This document shows positions 3,406-57,591 of a stretch of DNA of 64,000 nt, one piece after another. The notes beneath the pieces were generated by a model. It was not told where the DNA came from and did not search any database. It saw nothing but the letters and a program-made list of their open reading frames with translations. Location of the stretch: contig JAYFQV010000009.1 in NCBI GenBank assembly GCA_034926605.1, positions 51,116 to 115,115 on the forward strand. The letters run 5' to 3'. The stretch is from Victivallaceae bacterium. Lineage in GTDB: Bacteria; Verrucomicrobiota; Lentisphaeria; Victivallales; Victivallaceae. The position numbers were made by a program, and so were the translations under genes. Position 1 is the first letter of the stretch. Each line of letters opens with the position of its first letter.

Positions 3406-3486
3406 CTCTTCTGCCCTCCTTCTTGACTTGGGTTACCAACCGCCGTCGTCCCTGTTGCCATCAGAAATGATGAACCGCCGCTTCCG

Positions 3487-12675: not shown

Positions 12676-12841
12676 AGCATCGTTTCCTTACCTGGATCGG
12701 AAAAATTTCAAGAAATATACTTCTTCGCTTCGAAGGTTCAAGTTTCAATTACAACAAAAAAACATCTTTTTCCGGCGTTTTTGTGCCATGACGAGAAGGA
12801 CGGCCGGAGCCGTCCCATTAGTTCTGCGAATAAAAGTGTCG

Positions 12842-13516
12842 TCAATTGTTGTCGGAATCGTAATTATCCTGGCCTGACAAGTCATAGTCGTGCAGCACCA
12901 TGCCGCTGTTGTCGAGGATATAGCCGCACTTCGATTGTTTGAACAGGCCGCTGGTATCGCGGGTGTCTCCCACATGGCCGTCGGCATAGGCCAGGTTGCC
13001 GACTCCGTTGTGGCGGCCGCAAAGGCCGAGATTGCTGCCGTAATCAGTGCTCCGGTAGAAAGCGCAATACTGTGTGCCGGCCGGGGCGCCGGTGCTGTTT
13101 TGGTTTGTCTTCCACGCACAGGCGGTATTCTCGAGCACCACATAATAGATGGATGAACTCGGAATCTTATCCATAATTAATGATACAAAGAGGGTATCTT
13201 ATCGGATCAATGGCGTTGGTTTCGAGATATTCGCCACCGTAGTCCTCATCGGACTTGTCATTTTCGACAAAATAAGGGGTTCCATAGCCGGCGCTGCCAT
13301 AGGCGAGCATGCCGGTCTCTTCGCCGGCCGGGCACAGCGGGCCTGTGGGGCCGTTGCCGCCGAAATTGCTTCGGCTCCGTTTCTGGCAAAGTTTGAGTCC
13401 GTAACCAATAGGAATCAGATGTGCGCAAAACTTCGGACACTACCAAGAATCGCGATGATTGCGATTACAGCCAGAAGCTCGATCAATGTGAGTTTGTTCT
13501 TCATAATAATAAACAT
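12842..13516 (-). pseudogene. Disrupted prepilin-type N-terminal cleavage/methylation domain protein (DUF1559-like, C-terminal DGHV motif), split across three reading frames
   Basis: On the minus strand, 13516 down to about 13418 encodes MFIIMKNKLTLIELLAVIAIIAILGSV..., a classical prepilin leader plus hydrophobic helix, and then hits a stop after about 33 aa. A second frame continues as ...GYGLKLCQKRSRSNFGGNGPTGPLCPAGEETGMLAYGSAGYGTPYFVENDK.... A third frame (12842-13174) ends ...NLAYADGHVGDTR..., typical of PVC-group pilin-like proteins. The interruptions could be sequencing frameshifts or genuine decay. Confidence 0.55.
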
Positions 13517-13657
13517 CTTGAATAGTTGTATTACATTGCCATATAGTAGCAATCACATAATATTGAGGGATACAATGCCATAGTCGCAAGGAAATGGGAT
13601 TATTTGGGGTCATGCTTGTGAACGATCATGAAAATTGAAAAAAAATGAAAAAAACTG

Positions 13658-16325: not shown

Positions 16326-17405
16326 ATGTTGAGATTGTTGAAAACCGCGCTTGTCGCGGGAGTGCTGATAATGTCGTTTGCTCTCCGCGCCGGTGACGAG
16401 GATGCCCGCGCTTTGCTCAAGCAGGCCAATGCCGAATTCAAGGAACAGGACTACAACAGCGCAGCCAAAACCGCACTCGACGCCGAACATATGGCCGACA
16501 CTCCACAGGTCAAGGCCATGGCGGTTTCGCTGGCGGTGCAAAGCTATCGCAAGGCAGGACTTTATTACCGCGAGTTCGAAAATATTGAGAAACTGCTCAA
16601 CAACTATTCATCATACGCCGATTTTGATGCATTGGTGAAGCGTGAATTCGAAATCGCCGACGCCTGCTTTGCCGGCCATCGCGACCCCGCGTATTACTCC
16701 CTGCGGTGGATACCATGGATGCTCGACGAAGACCGCTCCATAGAAATATACGAAAAGGCTATTTCCCACGCGCCGTATGCTTCCCAGTCGCCGGACGCGA
16801 AATTGCGGACCGCGGTCAGGATGCTTGAGACCGGCAAGGACTTCGACAAGCCGATTGCCCTGCTGCGCAGCATCGTCAAGGATTACCCGGACACGCCGGA
16901 AGCGAAATCCGCCCGGCTTCATCTCGGTGTGGCTCTGGCAAAACTCGCCAAGTACGGCGACGGTGACGGTGCCTACAACCGCGAGGCGATTCAAGTCCTT
17001 AACGAGTTCAAGCTGAAGTATCCCGAATCACCCGAGATTCCATACGTCAACATCCTTATTGCCGAAACCCGCGATATTCAGGCCAAACGCCTGCTCGAGA
17101 CCGCCGAGTTTTACCGTAAAAACGAGCGTCCGGAAGCCGCTCAGCGCTACCTCGGAGAAGTGATCCGGCTTTATCCCAACACCGCCAGCGCCGACTCCGC
17201 CGAACGGGCGCTTACCGATATGGATAAGACTTATATCCCGCAACCGCTGCAGCCAACTCCCGACCAGACTATCCAGACTTACGATGCATATCCGCTGCCG
17301 CCCTCCGGCGGCGATCTGATGATTGCTCCCCAGGACAGCGACGGCAAATATCTGCTTCCGATCCGTGACCTCGGTATCGGAAAGCCCATTCAGGAGAAAA
17401 AATGA
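16326..17405 (+). CDS. TPR-repeat protein, BamD/YfiO-like
   Basis: 359 aa with a signal peptide and TPR-like helical repeats. The C-terminus is Pro-rich. Lies upstream of the LptE-like gene with overlap. No lipobox Cys, so a BamD assignment is tentative. Confidence 0.4.
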   Translation: MLRLLKTALVAGVLIMSFALRAGDEDARALLKQANAEFKEQDYNSAAKTALDAEHMADTPQVKAMAVSLAVQSYRKAGLYYREFENIEKLLNNYSSYADFDALVKREFEIADACFAGHRDPAYYSLRWIPWMLDEDRSIEIYEKAISHAPYASQSPDAKLRTAVRMLETGKDFDKPIALLRSIVKDYPDTPEAKSARLHLGVALAKLAKYGDGDGAYNREAIQVLNEFKLKYPESPEIPYVNILIAETRDIQAKRLLETAEFYRKNERPEAAQRYLGEVIRLYPNTASADSAERALTDMDKTYIPQPLQPTPDQTIQTYDAYPLPPSGGDLMIAPQDSDGKYLLPIRDLGIGKPIQEKK

Positions 17406-17902
17406 AGAAACTCATTTTGCTGTTGCCGCTGATTTTGGCCGCAAGTTGCTACCACTGCGGATCTCTGATGCATCCGCAGGTACAGTCCATCGCAATCGCG
17501 CCGGTGGTTAACGAGACCGCCGCCTACAACCTTGCCAGCGAAATGCGCATGGCCTTGTCCGAACAGTTCATGACCGACGGCAGTCTCACGGTGCGCGACC
17601 TCAATACCGCCGACTGCATTCTTAACGCCCGTGTTATCGAAGTCACCTATATAGAGATCAGCGACGACTCTTATGACAGCGACGTCATATATCGCCCCAC
17701 CGAGTGGCGCGTTACCGTCACCATGGAATTCAAAGTCATCATTCCCGGCAATCGCGAACCGCTTGTTTCCACCCGCACCGTTACCGGCGATTCCATGTTT
17801 CAGGTGCAGGCCGATCTCGCAACCAACCAGCATCAGGCCACTTTGCGCGCTTGTGCAAACGCCGCTAAAGCCGCGGTTGTCGCCACCACCGAAGCCTGGT
17901 AG
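17402..17902 (+). CDS. Lipoprotein, LptE-like (LPS-assembly lipoprotein fold candidate)
   Basis: MKKLILLLPLILAASC lipobox. The segment TVTMEFKVIIPGNREPLVSTRTVTGDSMF resembles the LptE core [24 protein letters not shown]. Confidence 0.4.
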   Translation: MKKLILLLPLILAASCYHCGSLMHPQVQSIAIAPVVNETAAYNLASEMRMALSEQFMTDGSLTVRDLNTADCILNARVIEVTYIEISDDSYDSDVIYRPTEWRVTVTMEFKVIIPGNREPLVSTRTVTGDSMFQVQADLATNQHQATLRACANAAKAAVVATTEAW

Positions 17903-17904
17903 TT

Positions 17905-18035
17905 TTTGCTTGCCCGCGCGGCGGATTTTGCGCCTTGCCGGTCGTCGTCGCTCGGTCAAGTACAGTCGTACGCTCCTTCGCTTCTCCTCGGGCAAAACGC
18001 AAAATCCATCCGCGCGAGCTAAGCAAAAACCTCTC
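17905..18035. terminator. Long imperfect inverted repeat (arms about 30 nt) flanked by a T-run on the left and an A-run on the right. Probable bidirectional terminator between convergent genes.
   Basis: Left arm TTTTTGCTTGCCCGCGCGGCGGATTTTGCG. Right arm CGCAAAATCCATCCGCGCGAGCTAAGCAAAAAC. Confidence 0.5.
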
Positions 18036-18148
18036 TGTGAGCTGGCGTTGGTAACGCGGCTCGCTTCGCTTGAACCACCTGATTTCTATGCAAAAAAAGC
18101 GCCCCCCGATTCGCAAGATGCTAACCGGAAGGCGCCGGGGTGGATATA

Positions 18149-20323
18149 TTATTTTTCTTCGTAAGTCAACGGAGCGTCAAGTTTGACGTTCACTATACGC
18201 GAAACCGCCAGACGTTTTACTTCGAGTCTCAGCTCGGTTTTGCCTGTGGTGGCCGCTTTGAACTCGTCGATGTTGTGCACCGCCGTATCTCCCACCTTTA
18301 CAATCATCTCATACGGCTTGATTCCGGCCACGCTGGCCTTTGAACCCGGTTTTACCGATGCAACCAGTACCGCAGGGTCTTCCGGAGCCATACGCATGTA
18401 GTTGCGCACTTCACTGGTCATGTTGCACACGGTTATCCCAAGATCTTTGACATTCAATCGCTTGGCGTTGTAGTAGCACTCCGGAGCAAGTTCCACCGTC
18501 AGAGTCGCCTCTTTTATCTTGCCGTCGGAAATATATTCGATCTTGTAGGTGGAACCGATGCCTAAATCGGAAACCAGCTTGTCTATGCCGCTGTTCAGAT
18601 CCGGCCAGGGGTATGGGATTTGGTCGAAGTATTGTTCCGGCAGATCGTCGTATTCGCTCCAGGGGAAGTCGGACATATCGTCACGCTCAAACTCGTATCC
18701 GGCAAGCTCCACGGGTATTCCCGTGGCTTCCGGCGTTATGCGCAGCAGAACGTCATCCTGTTTGATGCCGGCCTTTTGGGCGGGCGAATCCAGGGTCGCA
18801 TCGGTCACCAGCAACCCGAGCTTGCCACCGTTGGTCATCGACATCAGGTTGGTTGCTTCGGCCAGCTCGGGGGTGAGACGCTGATAATCAACTCCGAACC
18901 AGCCGATTTTGAAGCGTTCCTCGGGCGGCTTGGGTGCATAAGCCGTATCGAAATCCTTCATCTTGCCCGTCAGATCCCAGGGAATCACGCAGAAAGCGTC
19001 CGGCCCGTCGGAATAGCGGCCGTTGCGCATGGCGCGGAACATGAGCGGCAGGGTGATCAGTTTGCCGTCGGAGGAGAATCCCAGATTGCGGGTGCCGATC
19101 ATAGGGAATCGCTGATTCTGATAGCCGCGCTCGGTCGTTCCGGGTTTGGATTTTGCCGGAACCGCTTTGGCGATGACATTGTTTTCACTGACGTTGAGCA
19201 TCATGTCCCAAGCGTATGAACGGTAATAGTTATCCGGCGTGACCTGGGCAAATTCCACGGGAGCTTCCCCCACTTTTTCCTGCGGCTTAACTATGAAAAG
19301 GTCGTATTCCTTCAATGCTCCCACAAAATCGGCCGGGATGACCTTGTCGCCCACCGCGACGGTTATGCGGTCGATGCGGGCGCAGTCTGCGGAACTCAGC
19401 CGAAGCGGTACCAGCAGCGTACCGTCCGCCATCAGCAGTCCGGGGGCGATGCGTTCCAGATCGCGTTGTTCGCGATAGGAATAGCGATCGCGGCGGGAGG
19501 TATCCTTGGGAGGTTCGGCCAGCTTGAATTTTACCGGGAATATGCCTGATTTCGCAATGTTCAGGATATTGAGGTGTTCCTGTTCGCGGTCGGCGGCGGA
19601 GACGCTCTGCCACTTGTCGGGAGTCAACCGCCAATTGTCGGCCATTTCCAGTTCCTCCTGAAAGTTTACCGCCAGCACATCGCCCTTGTCGTCCACGATC
19701 AGAGTGTTGGCCGGCAGCTTGAGGAAGTCCTCTCCGGATGGCAGATAGCGTACCATTCCGGTGGGAGAAAACGGTTTGGTTCCGGCCATGGTCGAGCCGT
19801 CTTCTTCCACGATGAAGAAGCTGAAGAGCTCTTCGGGAAGTTTTTCCGGGTTGGCAAACACCAGCGGTTTTACCGGGAGTGTTCCGGAGAAGTTTAGGCT
19901 TATCGCATCGCGTGACGGAAAATACGCGGCGATTTGGGCAGGAGCGGTTTTGCCGTCCATGGTTTCTATTTCGATCCGTTCGATGTTTTCCATCGGGATG
20001 CCGGGATCGCTGCTCATAACTTTATCGGTAGCGACCACAAATCCCGGAGCGCTGTACGGCTTTTTCAGATTTATATATTCGTCCGCCCCCCGGCTGTGCC
20101 ATTCTCCGCAGTTGGGACATAGAAATCCGGAGATCGCGCACCCGGCTCCGGTTTCATCCACTTTCAGATAGTAGTTGACCTTCACGGCCGAGGCGGAAAG
20201 TTTTTCGACCAGCGAGGTATTGAGCGCGCGTATCTCTTCGGCCGATTTTGTTTTTTCCGCATCTTCTCCGAAGACCGGCAGGGCCAGCAATGCCAGAGCG
20301 GCGGCTGCAAGAAAGTGTTTCAT
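18149..20323 (-). CDS. Secreted PDZ-domain protein (two C-terminal PDZ domains; no obvious protease catalytic triad)
   Basis: 724 aa with a signal peptide. The PDZ-like segments are GLLVTDATLDSPAQKAGIKQDDVLL and VLVASVKPGSKASVAGIKPYEMIVKVGDTAV. No GDSGGP motif. Confidence 0.5.
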   Translation of the reverse strand: MKHFLAAAALALLALPVFGEDAEKTKSAEEIRALNTSLVEKLSASAVKVNYYLKVDETGAGCAISGFLCPNCGEWHSRGADEYINLKKPYSAPGFVVATDKVMSSDPGIPMENIERIEIETMDGKTAPAQIAAYFPSRDAISLNFSGTLPVKPLVFANPEKLPEELFSFFIVEEDGSTMAGTKPFSPTGMVRYLPSGEDFLKLPANTLIVDDKGDVLAVNFQEELEMADNWRLTPDKWQSVSAADREQEHLNILNIAKSGIFPVKFKLAEPPKDTSRRDRYSYREQRDLERIAPGLLMADGTLLVPLRLSSADCARIDRITVAVGDKVIPADFVGALKEYDLFIVKPQEKVGEAPVEFAQVTPDNYYRSYAWDMMLNVSENNVIAKAVPAKSKPGTTERGYQNQRFPMIGTRNLGFSSDGKLITLPLMFRAMRNGRYSDGPDAFCVIPWDLTGKMKDFDTAYAPKPPEERFKIGWFGVDYQRLTPELAEATNLMSMTNGGKLGLLVTDATLDSPAQKAGIKQDDVLLRITPEATGIPVELAGYEFERDDMSDFPWSEYDDLPEQYFDQIPYPWPDLNSGIDKLVSDLGIGSTYKIEYISDGKIKEATLTVELAPECYYNAKRLNVKDLGITVCNMTSEVRNYMRMAPEDPAVLVASVKPGSKASVAGIKPYEMIVKVGDTAVHNIDEFKAATTGKTELRLEVKRLAVSRIVNVKLDAPLTYEEK

Positions 20324-20327
20324 CTTA

Positions 20328-21740
20328 TTATAACTCCTTTTCGGTGTCTTTGCTGAAGTTCAAAACCGTCTGCCGGCGGGAGCCGTTGCGCATAATGGTG
20401 ATAACGGCTTTCGTGCGCAGGTGCACGTTGGAAAGCGCTTCGTCATATACTTTTTGCACTTGCTCTATGGAGGAGATTTTCCGGTTGTTTATGGCAATGA
20501 TTATGTCGCCGGTACTAAGATCGCAGCTGCGGGCGTTGCCGGAGTAGTCCAGGCCGAAAACGTAAACACCTTCTTTGCAGTAATGGTACAGGTCGGGGTT
20601 GTCGAAACGGTTGATGGCCTTGACAGTGATCCCCCAGCGTTTCAGCAGCAGTTCCTGTCCTTCCACCTTGCCTTTGGCGATCGGGGTGGCGGTGATCTGG
20701 AGTGTTTTTCCGTCGCGTTCGACGGTGAAAGTCACCGGCACGTTGAACGGCAGCAGGCCGAGCTTGCGGCGCAGCAGCGGCATGTCTTCGGCGGTCATCA
20801 CCGTTATCGGGGTGCCGTCGATGGCCACGATCAGATCTTTGGGAAGGAACCCGGCTTCGCGCGCCGGGCTGCCGACCTCGGTACCGGCTACCACCACGCC
20901 ATGGTCGAATTCAAAATATATGTTCTGCTCGAAGTTGTGCAGTTCCTGGAGTTCCAGTCCCAGCCAGGCCCAGTTTGCCTTCTTGTATTCACGAAGACGC
21001 GGCAGAACGTCAAGGATGGTGGGGGCCGGAACCGAAAAAGCGATGTCTCCGCCGAACAGCGTGCCGAGGGTGTTGATACCTACCACCTTGCCTTTGGTGT
21101 TGACCAGCGGTCCGCCGGAATTGCCGGGAGAAATGGATGCGTCGGTTTGGTACCACAACGAATATTCGCTGGCTCCGGGCAGGAATCGGTTGGAGCATGA
21201 TATGATGCCGATTGACACTGAGCGGTTCATTCCCCACGGCGCTCCCATCGCCATCACGAACTCTCCCTCCTGCACCGGTTCGGTCTCGAATTCGGCGCAG
21301 GGCAGGGGCGGGGTGTTCTCCGGCATTTTCAGCTTCAGCAGTGCCAGATCGACATCTTTGTCGAATCCGACGATTTCGGCGTCGTATGCCTGGGCGGTGT
21401 TGAGCTGACAGCGGATGTGGCTGGCTTTGTCGGCAACATGAAAGTTGGTGAGGACTTCGCCGTCCGGCGAGATTATCACGCCGGATCCTCCGATGATGTT
21501 GGCGTCGTCGGTGCCGCTTTCGGTGTTGGCCGCGACGGCATGGATGTAGACCACGCAGGGGAACACCTTGGCGTTGGCCGACTCCACCACCTGCTGAAAT
21601 TCGCTCGAATAGGGCGCGATGTCGGATGCACACCCTACGGCCAGTGCGGCGGCCGCCACCGGGATCAGAAACTTGAACCGCATCGGAGTTCTCCTTGATT
21701 TATATTGTGGCAGAACATGGCTTCCGGCTAACAATATCAT
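20328..21740 (-). CDS. htrA: HtrA/DegP-family periplasmic serine protease with PDZ domains
   Basis: 470 aa. Catalytic-triad context TNFHVA...DLALLK...GNSGGPLVN, with two PDZ-like regions. Confidence 0.8.
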   Translation of the reverse strand: MILLAGSHVLPQYKSRRTPMRFKFLIPVAAAALAVGCASDIAPYSSEFQQVVESANAKVFPCVVYIHAVAANTESGTDDANIIGGSGVIISPDGEVLTNFHVADKASHIRCQLNTAQAYDAEIVGFDKDVDLALLKLKMPENTPPLPCAEFETEPVQEGEFVMAMGAPWGMNRSVSIGIISCSNRFLPGASEYSLWYQTDASISPGNSGGPLVNTKGKVVGINTLGTLFGGDIAFSVPAPTILDVLPRLREYKKANWAWLGLELQELHNFEQNIYFEFDHGVVVAGTEVGSPAREAGFLPKDLIVAIDGTPITVMTAEDMPLLRRKLGLLPFNVPVTFTVERDGKTLQITATPIAKGKVEGQELLLKRWGITVKAINRFDNPDLYHYCKEGVYVFGLDYSGNARSCDLSTGDIIIAINNRKISSIEQVQKVYDEALSNVHLRTKAVITIMRNGSRRQTVLNFSKDTEKEL

Positions 21741-24204: not shown

Positions 24205-25584
24205 ATGGAAAAACAAGCTATTCACGACGTTCACGTCAGTGTTCGCGACATGTACAAGCGGGCACTCGCTTGCGCCGACGATCCGAAAAATCGCGACTAC
24301 GCCATCACGCTTCTGTCCGAAGTGGTGCGTCGCGCTCCCGCGCTGGAGGTGGCCCGCAAGAAGCTTCGCGAACTGGAACTTGCTAAGAAACCGGGCTTTT
24401 TTGCCAAGCTAGCCGCCTCCAGTTCCAGCCGCAAGGCGCTTCCGGCGATTCAGAGCGAGATGACTCAGAGTCCGCTGCGCGCCTTGGCCCTTTGTGAGGC
24501 CGAGCTGGCCAAGAATCTCAACAATCCGGCGGTGCTACGGCTGATGGCCGCCGCGGCGCGCGCGTTGAAAGCGGAGTTTATCGAGATTGAGGCGATGGAA
24601 CTGCTGCATGAGTTTTTGCCAGCCGACATGGATGTCTCGAAAAGTCTGGCCGAGCTTTACAAGCAGGCCGGAATGTTGGTCAAGCGCGCCGAACTGCTGA
24701 CCGTGCTGGCCAACAAGAATCCCGGCAGCTATGAGCTTCAGGACGCCGCCAAGCTGGCGATGAATGACATGAAGTCGATTCGCGAAGAGGAAAAGCTTCA
24801 GGCCATGCGGGAAAAGATGTCCGCCACCAAGGCCAACGTCACGCTGCAGCTTGAGGGCAGCACCATTCATGACGAACGCCAGGCCCGGACCCTGATCAGT
24901 AAATTTACTGCCGAACTGGCCGCCGCCGATTCTCTCGACATGCGCCGCAAACTCGCAGAGGCCTACATGGTGGCGAAGGAATACGATAACGCGATCAAGC
25001 AGCTCGAGTACGTGGCCCAGAAGCTGGGTACCGCCGATCCGGCGCTGGACAAGGCGATCGAGCAGGGCTATGTGGCCAAGTTCGACGCCTACATCGACGC
25101 GCTTAAGGCCAATCCGGATGATTATGAGAACGCCGCGCAGCAGATCGAGGAATACAGCAAGCAGCGCGACGAGTTCCGCCTGCAGCGCGCCGAAAACCGG
25201 CTTAAACTGTATCCCAACGACTCCCAGCTGCAGTTCGATTACGCGGCGCTGTGCTATGCCGGCGGACGGATCAACGAAGCCGTCGAATACTTCGAGGAGG
25301 CAGCGAAGAGCCAGCGGCTCAAGGTTGCCGCCAGCATCTACCTCGGCCGTTGCGCGATTCGCCGCCGCGACTATGACGCGGCCATCGAACGCCTGAACAT
25401 CGCAATCAAGGAACTTCTGACGATGGACAAGCGCAAACTTGAGGCGCTTTACTATCTCGGCATGGCCTACGAACGCGCCAACCGCTTCGAGGAGGCCAAG
25501 GCTCAATATGACCTGATTCAGAACAATCATCCGGGGTATCGCGATGTCGAAGAGCACATTGCGTTGTGCAAGGAGAATTTGTGA
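24205..25584 (+). CDS. TPR-repeat protein
   Basis: 459 aa, alpha-helical. The C-terminus has clear TPR units (...EAVEYFEEAAK..., ...LYYLGMAYERANRFEEAKAQY...). Confidence 0.55.
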   Translation: MEKQAIHDVHVSVRDMYKRALACADDPKNRDYAITLLSEVVRRAPALEVARKKLRELELAKKPGFFAKLAASSSSRKALPAIQSEMTQSPLRALALCEAELAKNLNNPAVLRLMAAAARALKAEFIEIEAMELLHEFLPADMDVSKSLAELYKQAGMLVKRAELLTVLANKNPGSYELQDAAKLAMNDMKSIREEEKLQAMREKMSATKANVTLQLEGSTIHDERQARTLISKFTAELAAADSLDMRRKLAEAYMVAKEYDNAIKQLEYVAQKLGTADPALDKAIEQGYVAKFDAYIDALKANPDDYENAAQQIEEYSKQRDEFRLQRAENRLKLYPNDSQLQFDYAALCYAGGRINEAVEYFEEAAKSQRLKVAASIYLGRCAIRRRDYDAAIERLNIAIKELLTMDKRKLEALYYLGMAYERANRFEEAKAQYDLIQNNHPGYRDVEEHIALCKENL

Positions 25585-25676
25585 TTTTTCCGGTTCCAGC
25601 CTATTGACTTTTTGGCGGTTAGGCACTATATTCTGAACGTGATAGTTTAAATAAAACATTTTATAAGAGGATTCAT

Positions 25677-26585
25677 ATGAGCGATAACAACGAGTTTCTG
25701 AAGGGGATTCCAACCCCGAAATCGGCGGAGGATTCCGCTCCCGCGACCACCGACACCGGCAATGTGCCGAAAGTGGAGGCGGACGATACCCGAACCCGCA
25801 AGACCGTGAAGCTCTCTGCCGCCGGAATGATGCCGAACCTTAACAAGCTTCGTCCGGAGGATTTGGCGGTGGCCAAGCCCACTCCGTCCGCTCCGCCGGT
25901 TGGCGGCGCCGCTCCCATGGGTGCCCCCGATTCTCCGACTGTGCGTCTTCGCCCGGTCGGTGGCGCCATTCCCACTCCCGGCGCCCATCCCACACCGGCC
26001 GCTGCTCCCGCCGCCGGAACGGATACCGGCAATGTACCGAAACAGAATGCCGCCGAGGATACCCGCACCCGCCGCACCGTGCGCATTACCGCCGCAAGTG
26101 TTGAGGATACGGTGAAATTGCAGCGCGGCGCCGCTCCGGCTGCGCCAAGTGCTCCTGCTGCTCCGGAGGCTCCGGCTGCTCCGACCGCCGAGGCGCCCAA
26201 GCCGAAGCTTTCCATTCCGAAGCCCGCTGCTCCCGCCTCGGCTCCCGCGGCACCGACCGCGTCGGCCGCTGCTCCCGCGGCACCGGCCGAAGCCGGTGCT
26301 CCGGCCACCGGTCGTGTGCGTCGTGAGAAGGCGCAGTTGAACTTGGTCAAGGAAGCCGGACCGGCCCAAGGGCCGTCCCGTGTGGAAAAAGATATGGCCG
26401 CGATTGCCGGCAATAAAGTAGGCGGCGGCAGTAACGAGGTATCTCCCGTTTATACCGTGATAGCGGCAATCACCCTGCTGGCGTTGATAGCCACCGTGGT
26501 GTTCAGCTCGCAGTATTTGAACATCTGGCAGCCCCAGTGGGCCGATGGATTCACGATACTGCCTTCCGCTTCCGAGTCCAAATAA
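25677..26585 (+). CDS. Pro/Ala-rich repeat protein with a C-terminal TM anchor
   Basis: RBS AAGAGGA lies 6 nt upstream of the ATG. Internal duplicated block TDTGNVPK...DTRTR(K/R)TV(K/R)(L/I)(S/T)AA. Long APAAPxAP tracts. C-terminal hydrophobic helix VIAAITLLALIATVVF. A plus-strand terminator follows. Confidence 0.55.
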   Translation: MSDNNEFLKGIPTPKSAEDSAPATTDTGNVPKVEADDTRTRKTVKLSAAGMMPNLNKLRPEDLAVAKPTPSAPPVGGAAPMGAPDSPTVRLRPVGGAIPTPGAHPTPAAAPAAGTDTGNVPKQNAAEDTRTRRTVRITAASVEDTVKLQRGAAPAAPSAPAAPEAPAAPTAEAPKPKLSIPKPAAPASAPAAPTASAAAPAAPAEAGAPATGRVRREKAQLNLVKEAGPAQGPSRVEKDMAAIAGNKVGGGSNEVSPVYTVIAAITLLALIATVVFSSQYLNIWQPQWADGFTILPSASESK

Positions 26586-26602
26586 CTTGGATGACTTAAG
26601 AG

Positions 26603-26632
26603 ACGGCCGCTTCAATGCGGCCGTTTTTTTTT
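26603..26632 (+). terminator. Rho-independent terminator
   Basis: ACGGCCGC-TTCAAT-GCGGCCGT hairpin followed by TTTTTTTTT. Confidence 0.75.
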
Positions 26633-26781
26633 GCATTTCACGAAAATAAGCCGGATTTTTCATGACCCATTCCTATTTTTTGAAAAAAAGACTGGAATTT
26701 TGTTGATTTTTCGCCGCATCAGTGTTTATTTGTTTTTTGAAGAACCATTTGCGATTGAAAACAGACCGGGAAGGAGGAGGT

Positions 26782-28221
26782 ATGGGCAGGGGCTTTCCCA
26801 TTATTGCCGCAATGTTTTTATGTTGGAGCCTGACGGGAGAGGCTCCGCCGGGAGAGGATGAGGCGCATACGCGCACTCTGCGTTTTGTTCAGGATGACGC
26901 GCAGGACTACATGGTATCGAAAGTTTATGTCCTGAAATATGTCCAAAGCAACGATATAATGCCGTTTGTGCTGGGCATGGTCAGGCGTTACAATGTCAAT
27001 TCCGTGGCTGGCAGCATTGAATACGGGGCCAACCGGCAGCAGATACTGACCGTGACCTGTCCGATCGGCATGATGCCTTATGTGGATGATTTTATCGCCA
27101 AGGTCGACCGGAACATCGAAGTAGACGGCCGGGTTCCCGGCGACATCATCCGCGGCACCGGAATTACCCGCGCTGTTTACCGCCCGAGATACCGGTCCGG
27201 GCAGGATCTGGTCAACATAATCGTGAATGCCGCCATAAACGCCGGGCCGTATGGATCGGTTTACGGCTATGACGAAAATTCCAATCAGATATATTGGAAA
27301 GACAACAGCTCAAACAGCGAGTTCGTATACCAGCTGCTCGGATGGCTGGATAGGCCGGCGCCGCAAATATCTTTCGAATTCACGGTTTACGAAGTGCGTG
27401 AAAGTACGCTCCGCGACATGGGAATAGAGTACCTCGCCTGGAAGAACGGCCCGGGGCTTAATCTGTTCGAAATAGGGTGGCGCGCATTCGATGTCACCAG
27501 TGCCGGTACCGCCGCGATCCAGGCGATGTCCGGGCCGGTCGGCGGATTTTTCTTTGCGCCGCAATTCGACGCCAGCTTCATCCGCATGCTTCAGCAGAAC
27601 GGCCGGGCGGAAATACGCAATCGGGCGAATTTCACGGTGTCCAATTCGGACAGCAAAACGTACAGTTTGCTGTTCAATCCTCAGCTTCAGAACATAGTAA
27701 AAAGCAACAACGACCAGACCAGCGTCACTCTGAGCGAGGTTTCCCAGCAGCCCGGCATAAGCCAGATATATTTGGAGATCGCCCGTCCGGTTGTAAACCA
27801 GCGCACCGGGCTTCCGGAAGTCGGTTATCCGGCCAACGAGCCGTTTTCGTTCAAAAACTATGCCCCCGGCGACTACGCCAAGCTGTCCGGCACCGTTTTT
27901 TTCGGCTACGACATCCGGACGGCAAACGTGGTTGAACGCAACAACCTCGGCAACGAGCTGATCGAGACCGGAACTTTTTCCGGCAATGTGCTTATCCCGC
28001 TGAACAAGGATGTGATTCTGGCCCAGTGGGACAAGGATCAGCTGGTGGAGCAGACTATCGGTGTGCCGTTTCTCTGCAACATTCCGGTGCTTAAATACCT
28101 GTTCAGCACCGTGACAACATCCAGGGAACACACCCGTGTGTATCTCACCGTCAATGTGACTATGCTTAACACCGCTGTTCCGAGTTCGCTTAAGATCGGC
28201 GAACTGGTAAGGCTCAAATAG
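26782..28221 (+). CDS. Secretin-family outer-membrane channel protein, paralog 1 (GspD/PilQ/CpaC superfamily)
   Basis: AGGAGG RBS upstream of the ATG at 26782. Signal peptide present. The N-terminal KVYVLKYVQSNDIMPFV is N0/N1-like. The C-terminal GVPFLCNIPVLKYLFS matches the secretin GVP.L..IP..G.LF motif. Confidence 0.6.
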   Translation: MGRGFPIIAAMFLCWSLTGEAPPGEDEAHTRTLRFVQDDAQDYMVSKVYVLKYVQSNDIMPFVLGMVRRYNVNSVAGSIEYGANRQQILTVTCPIGMMPYVDDFIAKVDRNIEVDGRVPGDIIRGTGITRAVYRPRYRSGQDLVNIIVNAAINAGPYGSVYGYDENSNQIYWKDNSSNSEFVYQLLGWLDRPAPQISFEFTVYEVRESTLRDMGIEYLAWKNGPGLNLFEIGWRAFDVTSAGTAAIQAMSGPVGGFFFAPQFDASFIRMLQQNGRAEIRNRANFTVSNSDSKTYSLLFNPQLQNIVKSNNDQTSVTLSEVSQQPGISQIYLEIARPVVNQRTGLPEVGYPANEPFSFKNYAPGDYAKLSGTVFFGYDIRTANVVERNNLGNELIETGTFSGNVLIPLNKDVILAQWDKDQLVEQTIGVPFLCNIPVLKYLFSTVTTSREHTRVYLTVNVTMLNTAVPSSLKIGELVRLK

Positions 28222-28231
28222 GAGGCCGGAG

Positions 28232-29926
28232 ATGAGGAAATTTCTGCTTATGCTTGCTGTCCTCGCCGCCGCCGGAGTTTTTGCTGACGATATCCCCGGA
28301 GTTCCGCGCGACTCCAATTTGAACAACACCGGCGGATATGAATCCACCAGGATTCAGGCACAGCTGCAGGTGAAGGTGGCCGATGACACCAGGATATTCC
28401 ATTTCATCCGCGACAACAACGATCCCCGGGTGGTTACCAAGACCTATCTGATCAAGAATGTCGACGCTTACGAGTTTCGCGACTTTCTTCGCCAGATGGT
28501 ACAGGCCAAGCGGGTCGGCAACACCGCATTGCAGCAGGACTATCCGGGCAACGCCTATGCCACCGACGGCTCCGGCAACAAGATTCCAGGCACGGTCGCG
28601 GCCACCGTCAGTTCGCCGGAGCTTTCTCCGACCGCCGCTCAGCCCGGCTATGTTCCGGCGGCGCAGCTTGGCAGCAACACCGCGGTGGAATGCATCAAGT
28701 ACGCCGACGGAACCGGGCTGTTGATAATAAGTGCCGAGGATTACCGTTTCCGCGACCACGACGGCGGAATGGGAATAGACTCGCTGGTGGCGTTTTTGGA
28801 CAAGCCCCAGATGGGCGCCTGCTTCGGCACCCAGACATTTTTCTATCTTCCCAAGTTCGTGCCGGCACGCAATTTGATGCCGCTTATTCAGAATGTCGGC
28901 ATGAACATAAACGACGTCACCGAAGCATGGCAGGGGCAGGATCTGGTGGCTTACGATCCCGATCTGAACTGGTTGATTTTCGACGTTTCCAATTACTCCT
29001 GCGACAATATTTCGCTGATGCTGATGAAATACGACGTTCCGATTCCCCAGGTCAGAATGCGTTATTCGGTCTACGAAGTCACCAGTGAAAACGACGAGAA
29101 GATCGGTATAGATTTCCAGAACTGGAAAAACAACGAGGGAGCCAACATCTTCTCGGCCGGCGGCCGTTATCGCAACAACTGGTCCGCCACCTATTCCGGC
29201 GGTATGTCAAGAGATTATGGTTCGGAACGGACCAGCTTCTACAATTTCAACCCAAAATGGAATTCCCGCTACCTCGACTTTCTGGTGAGCAAAGGTCGCG
29301 CCAGGGTTGCCTATACCGGCGAACTGCTGATCCGCAACAACACTCCGGCCAAGATCGAACGGCTGACGCAGATTTTTTACGACGACGTTTCCAACCCGGT
29401 CAGCGGGGCGGTGACTTCTCCGGACATGGGGGTGGGGCCGTATGAAATGCTTTCCGCGTTGATCGGTCGCGCAATTCCCAATAACGATATTCCGGTCGGC
29501 AAGGGCGAAGCCGAGATAACCACCCGCGCTTCCGGGTTCGGTTTTACTTTGACGGTTGCCAATGCCGCGGTGAATTTGGACGAGACGCGGCTGAAGGTTA
29601 CCATGAGCAATACCAGTTTGCTCGGGTTCGAGTCCTCCGGCGCTCCGCGTATTTCGGCCGCCAGCGTGGTCACTCAGGACGTGAGTCTGCCGCACGGCAA
29701 GGATGTATTCGTGATCGGTGGATTGAAAAAACAGGAGGTGGTTAAGTCGACGTCGGGCGTCCCGTGGTTGATGGACATCCCCTGGATCGGTTATCTGTTT
29801 TCAACCGAGTCGACTTCGGTCAAATACTCCGAGCTGGTGCTGGCGGCCCAATGCGACTGGGCGTCGCCGGGCGACGAGCTGCCGCCGCCGGGAAGCAATC
29901 TGCGGCTGCGCAGAGATAAGCAATAA
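28232..29926 (+). CDS. Secretin-family outer-membrane channel protein, paralog 2
   Basis: Signal peptide MRKFLLMLAVLAAAGVFA. N-terminal TKTYLIKNVDAYEFRDFLRQMV. C-terminal SGVPWLMDIPWIGYLFS secretin motif. Confidence 0.6.
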   Translation: MRKFLLMLAVLAAAGVFADDIPGVPRDSNLNNTGGYESTRIQAQLQVKVADDTRIFHFIRDNNDPRVVTKTYLIKNVDAYEFRDFLRQMVQAKRVGNTALQQDYPGNAYATDGSGNKIPGTVAATVSSPELSPTAAQPGYVPAAQLGSNTAVECIKYADGTGLLIISAEDYRFRDHDGGMGIDSLVAFLDKPQMGACFGTQTFFYLPKFVPARNLMPLIQNVGMNINDVTEAWQGQDLVAYDPDLNWLIFDVSNYSCDNISLMLMKYDVPIPQVRMRYSVYEVTSENDEKIGIDFQNWKNNEGANIFSAGGRYRNNWSATYSGGMSRDYGSERTSFYNFNPKWNSRYLDFLVSKGRARVAYTGELLIRNNTPAKIERLTQIFYDDVSNPVSGAVTSPDMGVGPYEMLSALIGRAIPNNDIPVGKGEAEITTRASGFGFTLTVANAAVNLDETRLKVTMSNTSLLGFESSGAPRISAASVVTQDVSLPHGKDVFVIGGLKKQEVVKSTSGVPWLMDIPWIGYLFSTESTSVKYSELVLAAQCDWASPGDELPPPGSNLRLRRDKQ

Positions 29927-29938
29927 AAAGGGACATAT

Positions 29939-30382
29939 ATGAAAAAGATTGCGGCATTGATTCTTACGGCGGCGCTTGCGGTTGTATCCGGGTGCCGGGT
30001 TGTTCCATCGGGCCCGGAACCCAAACCGGTTCCGGAGGCGGTCAACGCTTCCGCGGTCAAACTGGGCGGTGAACTGCTTTCCGCGATTCGTTGCCGCGAT
30101 TTTGCCGCGTTCTGCAAGATAGCTCCGGAACAGATGAAGCCCGAACTCGACAAGGCCAAGTTCGACGCTTCCGCCGATCAGTTCAAGGCCGAGTACGGCG
30201 AACTGGAAGATTTTGAGTTTCTGACCATGCTCGACACCCCCGGGGTCGCCAATGCGGTGTGGAAGGTGGGATTTCGGCGCAACGACGCCGACGGCCATGC
30301 GGTGAGGCGCGAGCTGCTGTTCAGGGTGGTGGTGGCCGAGCTCGACGGCAAGACCGAGATATTGAGCTTCGGATTCTTCTGA
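29939..30382 (+). CDS. Small lipoprotein immediately downstream of the secretins (pilotin-like position)
   Basis: MKKIAALILTAALAVVSGC lipobox. 147 aa. Confidence 0.5.
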   Translation: MKKIAALILTAALAVVSGCRVVPSGPEPKPVPEAVNASAVKLGGELLSAIRCRDFAAFCKIAPEQMKPELDKAKFDASADQFKAEYGELEDFEFLTMLDTPGVANAVWKVGFRRNDADGHAVRRELLFRVVVAELDGKTEILSFGFF

Positions 30383-30540
30383 TTTCCGCCTCTTCCGCTC
30401 CGGAGGCGGTATGCGGCGGGTTGATTTCCGTACATAGGCATAAAAAGCGTTTTTTTTGTTGAAAAACGCGACAATTTCATTTGTATTTTGTCTATTCGTG
30501 CGGAATATTTCTTTACGGATATAAACAATGGAGGTAAAAC

Positions 30541-31126
30541 AGTGGAAACCATAACCATTTTTCTGAAGAACTACTCGAGCGAATGGTTTTTTTATCTGGC
30601 GATCGCGGGAAGCGCCATCTTCGTGCTCCAGATGATAATGACTTTTATTGGAGTTGGCGGGGATAATTTCGATACCGATGTTGCCACCGACTTCGACTCT
30701 TCCGACATCGACATGACCGGCGGCGGCGATCTCGGTTTGGTGAGTTTCTTTTCATTGCGCGCCATTATCGGGTTCCTGACATTCTTCGGGTGGGCCGGAT
30801 TCTTCTGGGGGAACACGCTGGGCGGTTTTATCCTGTCGATCGGCTGCGGTCTGCTTATGGCGGTGCTGACCACGCTGGTGGTCTGGTTTTTCGTCAAGAT
30901 GCAGCAGTCCGGCAATTTGAAAGGCGATGACTTCATCGGCAAGACCGGGGCGGTGTATCTTTCCATTCCCGGCGGTGACGGTTCCGGGCTGGTGACCGTG
31001 CAATTTCCGTCCTGTACCCGCCAGATCAAGGCGATAGCCGAAGAAGAGATTCCGGCCGGTCGGCCGGTGAAGGTGGTCGAGCTGATCGGGTCCGATCTCT
31101 TCCGTGTCGAAAAACTTTCCAAGTAA
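30541..31126 (+). CDS. NfeD-like membrane protein (short form with C-terminal OB-fold)
   Basis: GGAGGT RBS upstream of the GTG at 30541. TM helices followed by C-terminal KTGAVYLSIPGGDGSGLVTVQF...VKVVELIGSDLFRVEK, which is OB-fold like. The longest ORF starts with TTG at 30488. Confidence 0.55.
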
Positions 31127-31216
31127 AAAAGCGGACGGGCGCGGCGTGGCCCGGAACATCGCGGGACGATGACGCCACAAGCATGTAACAACCAAAGTAA
31201 CATAGGAGACTTTTGA

Positions 31217-32785
31217 ATGGAAATTATTGTCTACATCGTGCTGGCGGCATTCGTGCTAATGGCTCTTTTCGCAATGCTCGCCACCCGCTACCGCAAGTGC
31301 CCCTCGGACCGCATCATGGTCATCTACGGTAAGACCGGCGGCAATCAGGCGGCACGCTGCATTCACGGCGGCGCCAAGTTCATCATCCCGGTGATTCAGG
31401 ACTACGGATACATCTCTCTGCGTCCGCTGCAGATCGATGTCAAGCTGGACAACGCGCTGTGCCAGCAGAATATCCGTATCAATGTGCCCAGCGTGTTCAC
31501 CGTGGGCGTGAGCACCCGTCCCGAGATCATGGGCAACGCCGCCGAACGTTTGTTCGGGCAGACCCCGGAAGCCATCCAGGAGCTGAGCAAGGACATTATT
31601 TTCGGCCAGCTGCGTCTGGTGATCGCCTCCATGACCATCGAGGAGATCAACGCCGATCGCGAAACGTTCCTGCGCGCGGTGGAAACCAACGTGGCCGAAG
31701 AACTTAACAAGATCGGCCTTGAACTGCTCAACGTGAACATCACCGACATCACCGACGAATCCGGTTACATCGACGCGATCGGTAAACGGGCCGCCAGCGA
31801 AGCGATCAACCGCGCCAAGATCGACGTGTCCGAAGAGGTGCGTAAGGGCTCCACCGGTGAGGCCGAGGCCAAGAAGCAGGAGCGTATCGCCGTGGCCGAC
31901 GCCGACGCCAAGGCCATCTCCGGCGAAGCCCGCGCCGCCCAGGAGCGCCGTATTGCCGTGGCGCAAGCCGAGACCGCCGCGGTCTCCGGCGAGGCCGAGG
32001 CCGCGCAACAGCGTCGTATCGCGATCGCGCAGGCCGAAACCACCGCCGTTTCCGGCGAGGCCACCGCCGACCAGCAGCGCCGTATCGCGGTGAAGCAGGC
32101 CGACAGTACCGCCACCCAGGGCGAGAACCTCTCCGCCGTCGAGATCGCCAAGAGCAACGCCAGCCGTACCGAGCAGGAGGCCGAAGCCTACCGCCGGGGC
32201 GAAGCCGCGCGCCGGGTAGCCGCCGCGCAGGTCGAGCAGGCGCAGTTCGACGCCGAGAAAGTTGTACAGATTTCCCGTGCCGCGATGGAAATGGAAAAGC
32301 AGAATGCCGAAATCATCGTTGCCGCCGAAATCAAGAAAAAGCAGATTGAAATCGAAGCCGAGGCCCAGGCCGAAAAACTCCGTCGCGAGGCGAAAGGCCA
32401 GGCCGATGCCATCTTCGCCAAGCTCGAGGCCGAGGCACGAGGCAATTTCGAGATTCTGAAGGCCAAGGGCGAAGGTTATCGCCAGATCATCGACGCCTGC
32501 GGCAAGAGCGGCGAGTCCGCCGGCCGTATGCTCCTTATCGAAAAACTTCAGGACATTGTTGCCATGCAGACCGAGGCGATCCGCAATATCAAGATCGACA
32601 AGGTCACGGTTTGGGACAACGGCGGCAAGACCGGCGATGGCAAAACCGCCACCGCGAACTTTCTCAGCGGCATGGTGCAGAGCCTGCCCCCGCTGCATGA
32701 CGTTGCAAAAATGGCTGGCCTGGATCTGCCCGAGTATCTCGGCAAGGTGAAGGACCAGGAGAAAACCGAGGAAAAGAAATCATGA
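31217..32785 (+). CDS. Flotillin-like SPFH/band-7 protein (FloT/YuaG-like)
   Basis: 522 aa. N-terminal TM helix, SPFH domain, then a long Ala/Glu-rich coiled-coil with the repeated AQERRIAVAQAETAAVSGEAEAAQQRRIAIAQAE flotillin signature. Confidence 0.75.
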   Translation: MEIIVYIVLAAFVLMALFAMLATRYRKCPSDRIMVIYGKTGGNQAARCIHGGAKFIIPVIQDYGYISLRPLQIDVKLDNALCQQNIRINVPSVFTVGVSTRPEIMGNAAERLFGQTPEAIQELSKDIIFGQLRLVIASMTIEEINADRETFLRAVETNVAEELNKIGLELLNVNITDITDESGYIDAIGKRAASEAINRAKIDVSEEVRKGSTGEAEAKKQERIAVADADAKAISGEARAAQERRIAVAQAETAAVSGEAEAAQQRRIAIAQAETTAVSGEATADQQRRIAVKQADSTATQGENLSAVEIAKSNASRTEQEAEAYRRGEAARRVAAAQVEQAQFDAEKVVQISRAAMEMEKQNAEIIVAAEIKKKQIEIEAEAQAEKLRREAKGQADAIFAKLEAEARGNFEILKAKGEGYRQIIDACGKSGESAGRMLLIEKLQDIVAMQTEAIRNIKIDKVTVWDNGGKTGDGKTATANFLSGMVQSLPPLHDVAKMAGLDLPEYLGKVKDQEKTEEKKS

Positions 32786-33396
32786 ATATCCTGATGGCCT
32801 GGAGCGCATTTATGGTCGTCGCGCTGGGTAGCGGATGCGGCGTGACGCCGATGTTCAATCCGCCCATTGTTGTCGATCCGACTCCCGAGCAGCGGAAGGT
32901 TGTGGAGTCGCAGCACGTTGAAATCGCGCAGAAGCTGGTCGGCGACTGGAAGGCCGGAGACGAAGCCGAAGCGAAAGCCGCCCTTGGCGAGAAAAACCTT
33001 CTGATGCTCGATGTGCAGCTTAAGGAGGGCGACAAAGGCATGAAGCAGGTTCCGCTTTACGGGCTGTGCTCGTATTTGAACAACGAGCCTTATCTGACGT
33101 TCTGCGTGAACTTGAACCAGCCGGCATATGACGGCATCAACGGTATGGTGCGTCCGAATTTCTACGCTGCTCATCTGGTTTTCGACGGTGCGGACAATGT
33201 CACGGTCGAGATCATCACCTGGAAGACCGAAGGTGAAAACGGCAAACCGACCGATCCTTCGCTGGTTTTCTGCAGTAATGGCGATGCAGAGAAGTGCGGC
33301 GACACCGTTATGAACTCCTCCGAAGAACTTTGTAAGCTCATCGCCGCCGGGAAATATCGCGTGGCCAAGACCTATAAGTTCGAACGGGTGAAGTGA
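32782..33396 (+). CDS. Hypothetical lipoprotein
   Basis: MNILMAWSAFMVVALGSGC lipobox. 4-nt overlap with the flotillin stop. Confidence 0.5.
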   Translation: MNILMAWSAFMVVALGSGCGVTPMFNPPIVVDPTPEQRKVVESQHVEIAQKLVGDWKAGDEAEAKAALGEKNLLMLDVQLKEGDKGMKQVPLYGLCSYLNNEPYLTFCVNLNQPAYDGINGMVRPNFYAAHLVFDGADNVTVEIITWKTEGENGKPTDPSLVFCSNGDAEKCGDTVMNSSEELCKLIAAGKYRVAKTYKFERVK

Positions 33397-33470: not shown

Positions 33471-33502
33471 GCCGCCACCGTTTATACGGCGGCGGCTTTT
33501 TT
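33471..33502 (+). terminator. Rho-independent terminator
   Basis: GCCGCCACCG-TTTATA-CGGCGGCGGC hairpin followed by TTTTTT. Confidence 0.7.
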
Positions 33503-56418: not shown

Positions 56419-56605
56419 ATCACTCTTTCCTTTTGGGTTAAAAGTTTCAAATTGTTTTCCAAAAACTTAAATCCATTAAATATACCATCGATACATTTTT
56501 ATTCAAGTCCCAAAATGGAAAACCCGGAATTTTATCGGGCGGGAAGTTGTTTTCCGCGGTTTGTGTGTCTATATTATCAAAAATCATTGTGAAGCGAGGA
56601 ATTCA

Positions 56606-57589: not shown

Positions 57590-57591
57590 AA

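Follow-up and report, generated by a model that had tools for sequence, protein, structure and literature searches.

The described proteins closest to the genes considered here are the secretins GspD (PulD/EpsD/XcpQ) of type II secretion systems (T2SS), PilQ of the type IV pilus (T4P), and pIV of the filamentous phage f1. Orphan secretins, such as XqhA of P. aeruginosa, and self-piloting liposecretins, such as HxcQ, also exist. We analyzed a 64-kb stretch of DNA from a Victivallaceae bacterium (contig JAYFQV010000009.1, positions 51,116 to 115,115 of the forward strand; hereafter the window), in which two adjacent genes encode real, full-length secretin paralogs, here called secretin A and secretin B. 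Together with the gene for a small lipoprotein resembling DUF3887, they form a predicted operon within the interval 24205-33396, an interval that an earlier note, made from the sequence alone, had read as a single secretion layout of eight genes. The components of this operon, being secretins, are of a known kind, and what is new is the conserved module of two paralogs with its own lipoprotein. We propose that A and B probably serve jointly as a two-secretin outer-membrane portal for a machine of the type-IV-filament class encoded elsewhere. The genes of the module are as follows, with positions counted from the first nucleotide of the window.

26782..28221, + strand: secretin A, 479 aa, upstream member of the pair (Secretin profile, PDB profile, hhalign, and Foldseek)
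28232..29926, + strand: secretin B, 564 aa, downstream member of the pair (Pfam Secretin, PF00263)
29939..30382, + strand: small lipoprotein, 147 aa, lipobox VSGC, weak similarity to DUF3887; facultative third member of the module

Like GspD, both proteins have an apparent signal peptide, putative periplasmic ring-forming N-domains, and, at the C terminus, a secretin domain that carries the GVP.L..IP.LG.LFS motif, and GspD is the best match of secretin B in both the PDB and NCBIfam as well as the best Foldseek match of secretin A. Unlike GspD, they have two N-domains rather than N0 to N3 and lack the S-domain, and the pair lies outside any gspC-M operon and always consists of two tandem paralogs. 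The f1 protein pIV (PDB 7ofh) shares with the pair a minimal N0-N3-secretin architecture and a similar length; it is the best PDB profile match of secretin A, and a PHROG match to pIV was obtained too. The pair differs from pIV in consisting of chromosomal core genes that are paired paralogs, with no phage context and no relatives on viral contigs. PilQ resembles the pair in its secretin domain and in the location of its gene away from those for the ATPase and platform, and just as PilQ has the pilotin PilF/Tgl, the pair may need a lipoprotein for assembly. In contrast to PilQ, however, neither secretin A nor secretin B contains an AMIN domain detectable with Pfam, pilMNOP is not found upstream (where the genes vary from locus to locus), and the linked lipoprotein is DUF3887-like, whereas PilF/Tgl is a tetratricopeptide repeat (TPR) protein. 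Secretins of the XqhA and HxcQ types are likewise encoded apart from the rest of their machinery, but these are single genes, whereas here there are two obligately linked paralogs, neither of which carries a lipobox.

The two adjacent genes of about 480 and 564 aa described in the earlier note were recovered as open reading frames (ORFs) of 479 and 564 aa. Translation of secretin A most likely starts at the ATG at position 26782, behind the Shine-Dalgarno sequence GGAGGAGG, which gives the 479-aa product, and secretin B starts 10 nt past the secretin A stop codon. The secretin A translation contains the motif GVPFLCNIPVLKYLFS and the secretin B translation the motif GVPWLMDIPWIGYLFS. Secretin B matched Pfam Secretin (PF00263) at 63.4 bits (cutoff, 27.5), and its profile matched GspD in the PDB with an E value of 7.6e-8. 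Secretin A alone scored 25.2 bits against PF00263, slightly under the cutoff, and was assigned as a secretin despite this score because of the evidence from its family. PF00263 matches are precomputed on its orthologues, and the family profile matched the solved structures of pIV (7ofh, E value of 8e-9) and GspD (E value of 1e-6). Alignment of the A and B families with hhalign gave a probability of 99.7% over 411 columns, the N-terminal domain included, and in a Foldseek search with the AlphaFold2 (AF2) model of secretin A the 40 best PDB matches were all secretins, with 450 to 500 columns aligned. Profile searches therefore bear out the secretin motif that had been noticed in both proteins, directly for B and through the family profile, hhalign, and Foldseek for A. 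The two paralogs are very divergent, with about 22% identity between them. Secretin B shows 100% identity to a protein from a metagenome-assembled genome (MAG) labeled "Victivallaceae bacterium" and has hundreds of relatives with 63 to 71% identity labeled Lentisphaeria or Victivallales, and secretin A gave the same picture.

Secretin A is predicted to consist of a signal peptide, two N0/N3-like domains, and the C-terminal secretin domain; secretin B is predicted to have a signal peptide, an N-domain with an insertion of about 60 aa, a second N-domain, and the secretin domain. The AF2 monomer models are of low confidence, with a predicted local distance difference test (pLDDT) score of 62 for A and 48 for B, and the fold search was run with the A model, the B model being excluded. 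Each of these low-confidence models nevertheless contains two beta-alpha-beta-beta-alpha units, and that of secretin A matched the crystal structures of XcpQ N0-N1 at a Foldseek E value of about 5e-3. The Pfam family Secretin_N was faint in secretin A (E value of 0.063) and was seen in some orthologues. Of the earlier description of each protein as having a signal peptide followed by N0/N1-like modules, the signal peptides are seen as signal-peptide-like N-termini on inspection of the translations, and the N-terminal modules, visible as the two units in the models, are backed in part.

The profiles of individual secretin classes did not place the pair. NCBIfam models for GspD, MshL, PilQ, SctC, HofQ, and Amuc_1098 all scored far under their cutoffs and at similar levels. 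For GspD (TIGR02517) the scores were 63.9 bits with B and 23.3 bits with A, against a cutoff of 351, and for PilQ (TIGR02515) they were 55.2 bits with B and 36.2 bits with A, against a cutoff of 284. SctC of the type III secretion system (T3SS; TIGR02516) gave 48.8 and 34.4 bits (cutoff, 238), and similarity to the Tad secretin RcpA (CpaC) was limited to a weak C-terminal match to 8odn (E value of 3e-5). The PDB profile matches to GspD, pIV, PilQ, and RcpA were mostly confined to the region of the C-terminal motif. Membership in a curated secretin class was rejected, as the scores lay far below the cutoffs and were similar for GspD, MshL, PilQ, SctC, and pIV.

The arrangement of the two genes was compared in sets of related loci comprising 87 loci searched by tblastn with all eight proteins of the interval, 84 window-type loci, and 96 loci used for counting secretin ORFs. 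When one genome per species was scanned, relatives of secretin B turned up in 460 genomes, mainly of Victivallales; the best 80 of these 460 were all from Lentisphaerota (Lentisphaeria or Victivallales), of gut, rumen, or sediment origin. From these sequences, the presence of the pair appears to be near-universal in the order Victivallales. Its synteny is kept in related genomes, with a secretin A-type gene immediately 5' of B in every one of the 85 tblastn loci in which the contig left room for it. The median distance from the A stop codon to the B start codon is 12 nt, and in 19 of 82 cases the two genes overlap by 4 nt, which suggests translational coupling of A and B. Exactly two secretin ORFs were counted in 88 of the 96 loci, the exceptions being contig ends, a split A gene (L010), a singleton (L096), and extra copies (L034 and L092).

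When the secretin B profile was run against 1.84 billion representative proteins, 106 proteins of 550 to 730 aa were found below an E value of 1e-30, and these have in common the N-terminal motif VHFIRDNNDP.V.TK.Y.LKHADPYE. Of 11 distant homologues whose context was inspected, 10 lie in tandem pairs. Distant and remote pairs include the following.

P0247: tandem pair of 508 and 629 aa
P0502: tandem pair of 468 and 607 aa
P0428: tandem pair of 478 and 699 aa
P0464: tandem pair of 480 and 599 aa, the same locus having another pair at a distance of 7 kb
L093: tandem pair of 508 and 586 aa
"Sumerlaeia" MAG: tandem pair of 544 and 575 aa
"Planctomycetota" MAG: tandem pair of 557 and 541 aa, flanked by biotin carboxylase and SpoVG

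The A-type upstream proteins share 32 to 64% identity among themselves and about 22% with any B. In a neighbor-joining tree, the seven Lentisphaerota-type upstream genes formed one clade in 100 of 100 bootstraps, and their branching order was that of their downstream partners; the upstream and downstream genes of the three remote pairs mirrored one another likewise. Since the A and B trees are mirrored and second pairs occur, the two genes have been passed on together ever since they split once in the distant past, and on at least some occasions they were also duplicated together.

No more than 10 kb from the first pair in L092 (19078-21800, minus strand), another B-like gene (673 aa) stands behind an A-type gene, and in L034 a further B-like ORF is found 8 kb upstream, at 100-1722 on the plus strand and at the edge of the locus. 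In L010, the A-type gene at 2294-3721 is broken into ORFs of 261 and 213 aa, immediately 5' of an intact B, representing either an assembly frameshift or a rare pseudogenized A.

The third gene of the module encodes the 147-aa lipoprotein. A homologue adjoins the pair in 54 of 87 loci by tblastn and in about 60 of 84 loci when an iterated hidden Markov model was used; most of these homologues have a lipobox, and their gene is usually located right after B and sometimes right before A. DUF3887 was matched by 10 of 24 members of the family (best E value of 9e-7), a PDB search gave no relative of solved structure, and no homology to known pilotins was found. The earlier note had pointed to a small lipoprotein in a pilotin-like position downstream of the secretins, and this agrees with the canonical lipobox (VSGC) and with the frequent adjacency of the gene to the pair. 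The lipoprotein is thus a candidate pilotin or plug by its position, and from its distribution among the loci it appears to be a conserved but facultative partner of the pair. Like the pilotins PulS, AspS, MxiM, and InvH and like the Slk plugs, it is small, predicted to be exported and lipidated, and secretin adjacent; it differs from them in lacking sequence similarity, in its weak resemblance to DUF3887, and in being absent from some pairs. The Slk plug proteins represent a recently described alternative role for small partners of secretins (PMC13392014).

The window was scanned for genes of an inner-membrane machine. No prepilin motif and no T2SSE Walker box was present in any frame of the 64 kb, and Pfam scans of 38 window ORFs revealed no T2SS, T4P, or T3SS families, in line with the earlier observation that the window holds no pilus, T2SS, or T3SS ATPase, platform, or pilin gene. 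Motif scans of the 84 window-type loci likewise detected no inner-membrane machinery genes within 10 kb of the pair. There were no gsp genes in the window or in the 84 related loci and no tad genes nearby. The sole Walker-box match, in L070, was rejected as a T2SSE protein because it is FtsK. The term "orphan" is therefore apt for these secretins, and a canonical T2SS or Tad locus continuing beyond the window was not seen, as the pairs of the relatives stand alone.

Genes for T2SSE ATPases were present in loci L088, L089, and L091, locus L001 contains a DUF1559/SBP_bac_10 gene, and the genomes of relatives hold more than one T2SSE ATPase. Parts of type IV filament machines therefore exist in these genomes. 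In L088 (10870-17855) and L089 (11365-18391), an ABC exporter with an HlyD-like adaptor is encoded downstream of a distant pair, as are a 4Fe-4S protein and two T2SSE ATPases of 495 and 351 aa, which are PilB/PilT-like sizes. In no other case seen did ATPases of the type-IV-filament class lie within 7 kb of a secretin pair, and the T2SSE genes were rejected as pair linked because unrelated genes lie between.

Strict adjacency, the predicted translational coupling, and the mirrored trees together make up a pattern of obligate partners, and for this reason we suggest that A and B act together. Both secretins would be exported by Sec and would then insert into the outer membrane, possibly aided or plugged by the adjacent lipoprotein. 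There they would work as one portal, in the form of either a mixed ring or two associated (stacked) rings, through which an ATPase, a platform, and (pseudo)pilins of the T2SS or T4P type would push folded proteins or a fiber. A more specific version, which we put forward tentatively and with less confidence than the joint portal as such, is that A and B co-assemble as one hetero-oligomeric channel, that the DUF3887-type lipoprotein is a new pilotin or plug, and that the whole is the standard portal of Lentisphaerota and of some neighboring phyla. Our inferences concern the joint assembly of the two secretins, the part played by the lipoprotein, and the nature of the machine at the inner membrane.

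Several observations weigh against a joint portal of this kind. The inner-membrane partner is never adjacent, and the profile scores favor none of GspD, PilQ, pIV, RcpA, and SctC. The lipoprotein is not beside the pair in Victivallis lenta or in the distant pairs and so is not obligatory, and the remote homologue in L096 is a lone secretin. All solved secretins obtained from the PDB searches, whether from T2SS, T3SS, T4P, Tad, or phage, are rings of a single secretin, and the pLDDT values of the monomer models are too low for a comparison of gates and lips.

The single-secretin rings also favor the strongest alternative, namely, that A and B are each an independent homo-oligomeric channel for a different machine (e.g., a T2SS-like machine for one and a pilus-like machine for the other), with cotranscription as their only connection. 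With about 22% identity and a complete set of domains in each, either protein could in principle form a ring by itself, and the relatives' genomes have more than one T2SSE ATPase. Independent channels would, however, be expected to drift apart or to be lost singly, whereas A was found next to B in all 85 loci, the overlaps suggest translational coupling, and the two genes, whose trees mirror each other, are duplicated together. We therefore regard independent channels as unlikely, although they account for the data better than any other alternative. It is less likely still, and in our view doubtful, that one paralog is the channel and the other an accessory descended from a secretin, which has lost the ability to form a membrane pore and serves, for instance, as a periplasmic ring, cap, plug, or assembly scaffold. 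That A is the shorter protein and falls below the Pfam Secretin cutoff, and that B carries lineage-specific insertions, would fit such a division of labor, and secretin-binding accessories have been described, among them the Slk plugs (PMC13392014). On the other hand, A aligns over its full length, barrel strands included, with both B and the solved secretins, and it is as conserved as B across Victivallales (60 to 71% identity for A and 58 to 71% for B).

The joint portal of A and B remains the reading that we prefer. The interval 24205-33396 comprises eight co-oriented ORFs, with the coordinates given in the earlier note. Besides the three genes of the module, the features in and just beyond it are as follows.

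24205..25584, + strand: TPR protein, 459 aa, with Pfam TPR families over its C-terminal third
25677..26585, + strand: Pro/Ala-rich protein, 302 aa, with a C-terminal membrane anchor seen in the translation
26598..26629, + strand: terminator-like hairpin with a 13-bp stem, 7 GC pairs, and a T-run, between the Pro/Ala-rich gene and secretin A
30488..31126, + strand: NfeD-like membrane protein with three hydrophobic segments and a C-terminal OB-like tail; weak match to Pfam NfeD
31217..32785, + strand: flotillin, SPFH/Band 7, FloT-like, matching Band_7 and flotillin-1/2 in the PDB
32782..33396, + strand: probable lipoprotein, 204 aa, identified from the translation; 4-nt overlap with the flotillin stop codon
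33478..33495, + strand: weak terminator-like hairpin with a T-run, after the last co-oriented gene

This 9-kb stretch consists of three unrelated predicted transcription units. The first contains the TPR protein and the tail-anchored Pro/Ala-rich protein and is ended by the strong terminator; the second is the predicted operon of secretin A, secretin B, and the small DUF3887-like lipoprotein; and the third is an ordinary unit of the NfeD-like protein, flotillin, and a lipoprotein, to which the 204-aa lipoprotein is assigned. Among the three, conservation as an entity is limited to A, B, and the 147-aa lipoprotein. The genes had been described as co-oriented up to a terminator at about 33.5 kb, and this is correct with regard to their orientation and to the weak hairpin at 33478-33495, but the strong terminator at 26598-26629 interrupts the series.

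Homologues of the TPR, Pro/Ala-rich, NfeD-like, flotillin, and 204-aa lipoprotein genes were found near the pair in none of the 87 tblastn loci, and clustering of all neighboring ORFs revealed no other neighbor family common to more than 13 of 84 loci. The flanks are wholly different even between close relatives, in which the pair stands alone amid housekeeping genes. In V. lenta its neighbors are LacI and an amino-acid permease, one MAG has a Kdo kinase together with a radical SAM enzyme beside it, and another MAG has ornithine decarboxylases there.

The TPR protein shows no signal peptide in its translation and is predicted to be cytoplasmic. It is therefore not an outer-membrane lipoprotein of the PilF/PilW type, and together with its absence from the vicinity of the pair in all 87 loci this speaks against the PilF/PilW-like role that had been suggested for it. 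The membrane-anchored Pro/Ala-rich repeat protein reported upstream on the same strand was confirmed in the translation, with a C-terminal anchor and two repeats; it had no family match in Pfam, NCBIfam, PHROGs, or PADLOC. Its cytoplasmic N-terminal region holds two copies of a motif of about 25 aa, TDTGNVPK...(A/E)DTRTR(K/R)TV(K/R), and this region is followed by a single C-terminal membrane helix. Long antisense ORFs were observed opposite the Pro/Ala-rich gene (25647-26663, minus strand, 338 aa) and opposite the flotillin gene (480 aa); their codon-position G+C is atypical, and they are by-products of high G+C rather than genes.

With regard to the third unit, the identification of flotillin was upheld by Band_7 (94.5 bits) and by flotillin-1/2 in the PDB (E value of 1e-22), with 140 bits for NCBIfam FloT, which is under its cutoff. 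The NfeD assignment is weaker, with 14 bits and an E value of 0.059 against Pfam NfeD (cutoff, 29.1) and no match in a PDB search; by inspection, its topology fits NfeD. The two genes thus have the makeup of an NfeD-flotillin (SPFH) pair in which the NfeD partner is weakly backed. The 204-aa lipoprotein had no family match in Pfam or NCBIfam. NfeD and flotillin are a self-standing, widespread gene pair.

The idea put forward in the earlier note, that the secretin pair together with the TPR, Pro/Ala-rich, lipoprotein, NfeD, and flotillin genes forms one new secretion layout tied to membrane microdomains, draws on the co-orientation and close spacing of all eight genes in the window. Synteny of the whole eight-gene block was rejected, since the five extra genes were near the pair in 0 of 87 loci and the flanks were unrelated in every relative inspected. 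The linkage of the pair to flotillin/NfeD, the TPR protein, the Pro/Ala-rich protein, and the second lipoprotein, and with it any conservation of NfeD-flotillin beside the pair in related genomes, fails for the same reason. Because this synteny is absent and a strong terminator precedes secretin A, we reject the integrated system as highly improbable; the cytoplasmic location predicted for the TPR protein and the self-standing nature of NfeD-flotillin argue in the same direction. The association of flotillin and NfeD with the pair is a local coincidence, and its removal clears away a false lead. Least probable of all is a remnant of a prophage or filamentous phage with pIV-like secretins for virion export, as the two N-domains without an S-domain, the best PDB profile match of A (pIV 7ofh), and a match to PHROG 1012 (pIV) at 47 to 69 bits are countered by the lack of any relative in IMG/VR viral contigs and of phage genes around the pair in any locus, by its near-universal presence in the order and the parallel inheritance of A and B, and by pIV scores not above those of GspD or PilQ, the PHROG match reflecting generic secretin similarity.

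A full-text literature search of incomplete coverage found no account of Lentisphaerae secretins or of tandem, paralogous, or heteromeric secretins, which is in accord with the earlier view that the layout of the pair had not been described. If A and B do co-assemble, this would be the first natural secretin made from two different subunits. A lineage in which both full-length paralogs have stayed in one operon through speciation and duplication offers a natural test case, which could reveal how two subunits share ring symmetry, gating, and docking to the inner-membrane machine. Victivallales, which degrade polysaccharides, are widespread in the guts of humans and ruminants, and the pair is a candidate for the principal route by which they export folded proteins or pili. 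The cultivable species Victivallis vadensis and V. lenta make the question directly testable.

Elsewhere in the window, Pfam assigned only housekeeping functions to 30 further ORFs. The families present include HrpB, major facilitator superfamily transporters, TilS, KsgA, a BamD-like lipoprotein, and HtrA-type proteases, as well as GH20 enzymes, a copper ATPase, a sigma-54 regulator, and phosphoenolpyruvate carboxykinase; scans of the window for tRNAs and Rfam families gave no match. Just 5' of the studied region, a set of envelope-biogenesis genes (16326-21740) consists of a BamD/YfiO-like TPR lipoprotein (16326-17405, plus strand) adjoining two tandem PDZ proteins on the minus strand, one with PDZ only (18149-20323) and one with a trypsin-like protease domain of the HtrA type (20328-21740); these genes are not kept beside the pair elsewhere. 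Between 12001 and 14000 the G+C content drops to 0.495, compared with 0.55 to 0.64 in the rest of the window, and short ORFs with atypical codon-position G+C occur at 12745-13583; this segment could represent a small insert of foreign DNA or a noncoding stretch. Finally, at 56561-62400 on the plus strand, a MotA/ExbB-like protein of 342 aa (PADLOC ZorA2, weak, E value of 3.7e-8; Pfam MotA_ExbB, 23 bits) is followed by three co-oriented genes; two of their products (264 and 727 aa) matched no family, the third (613 aa) has weak similarity to alpha/beta-hydrolases, and the four genes could be a Zorya-like or Tol/Exb-like module.

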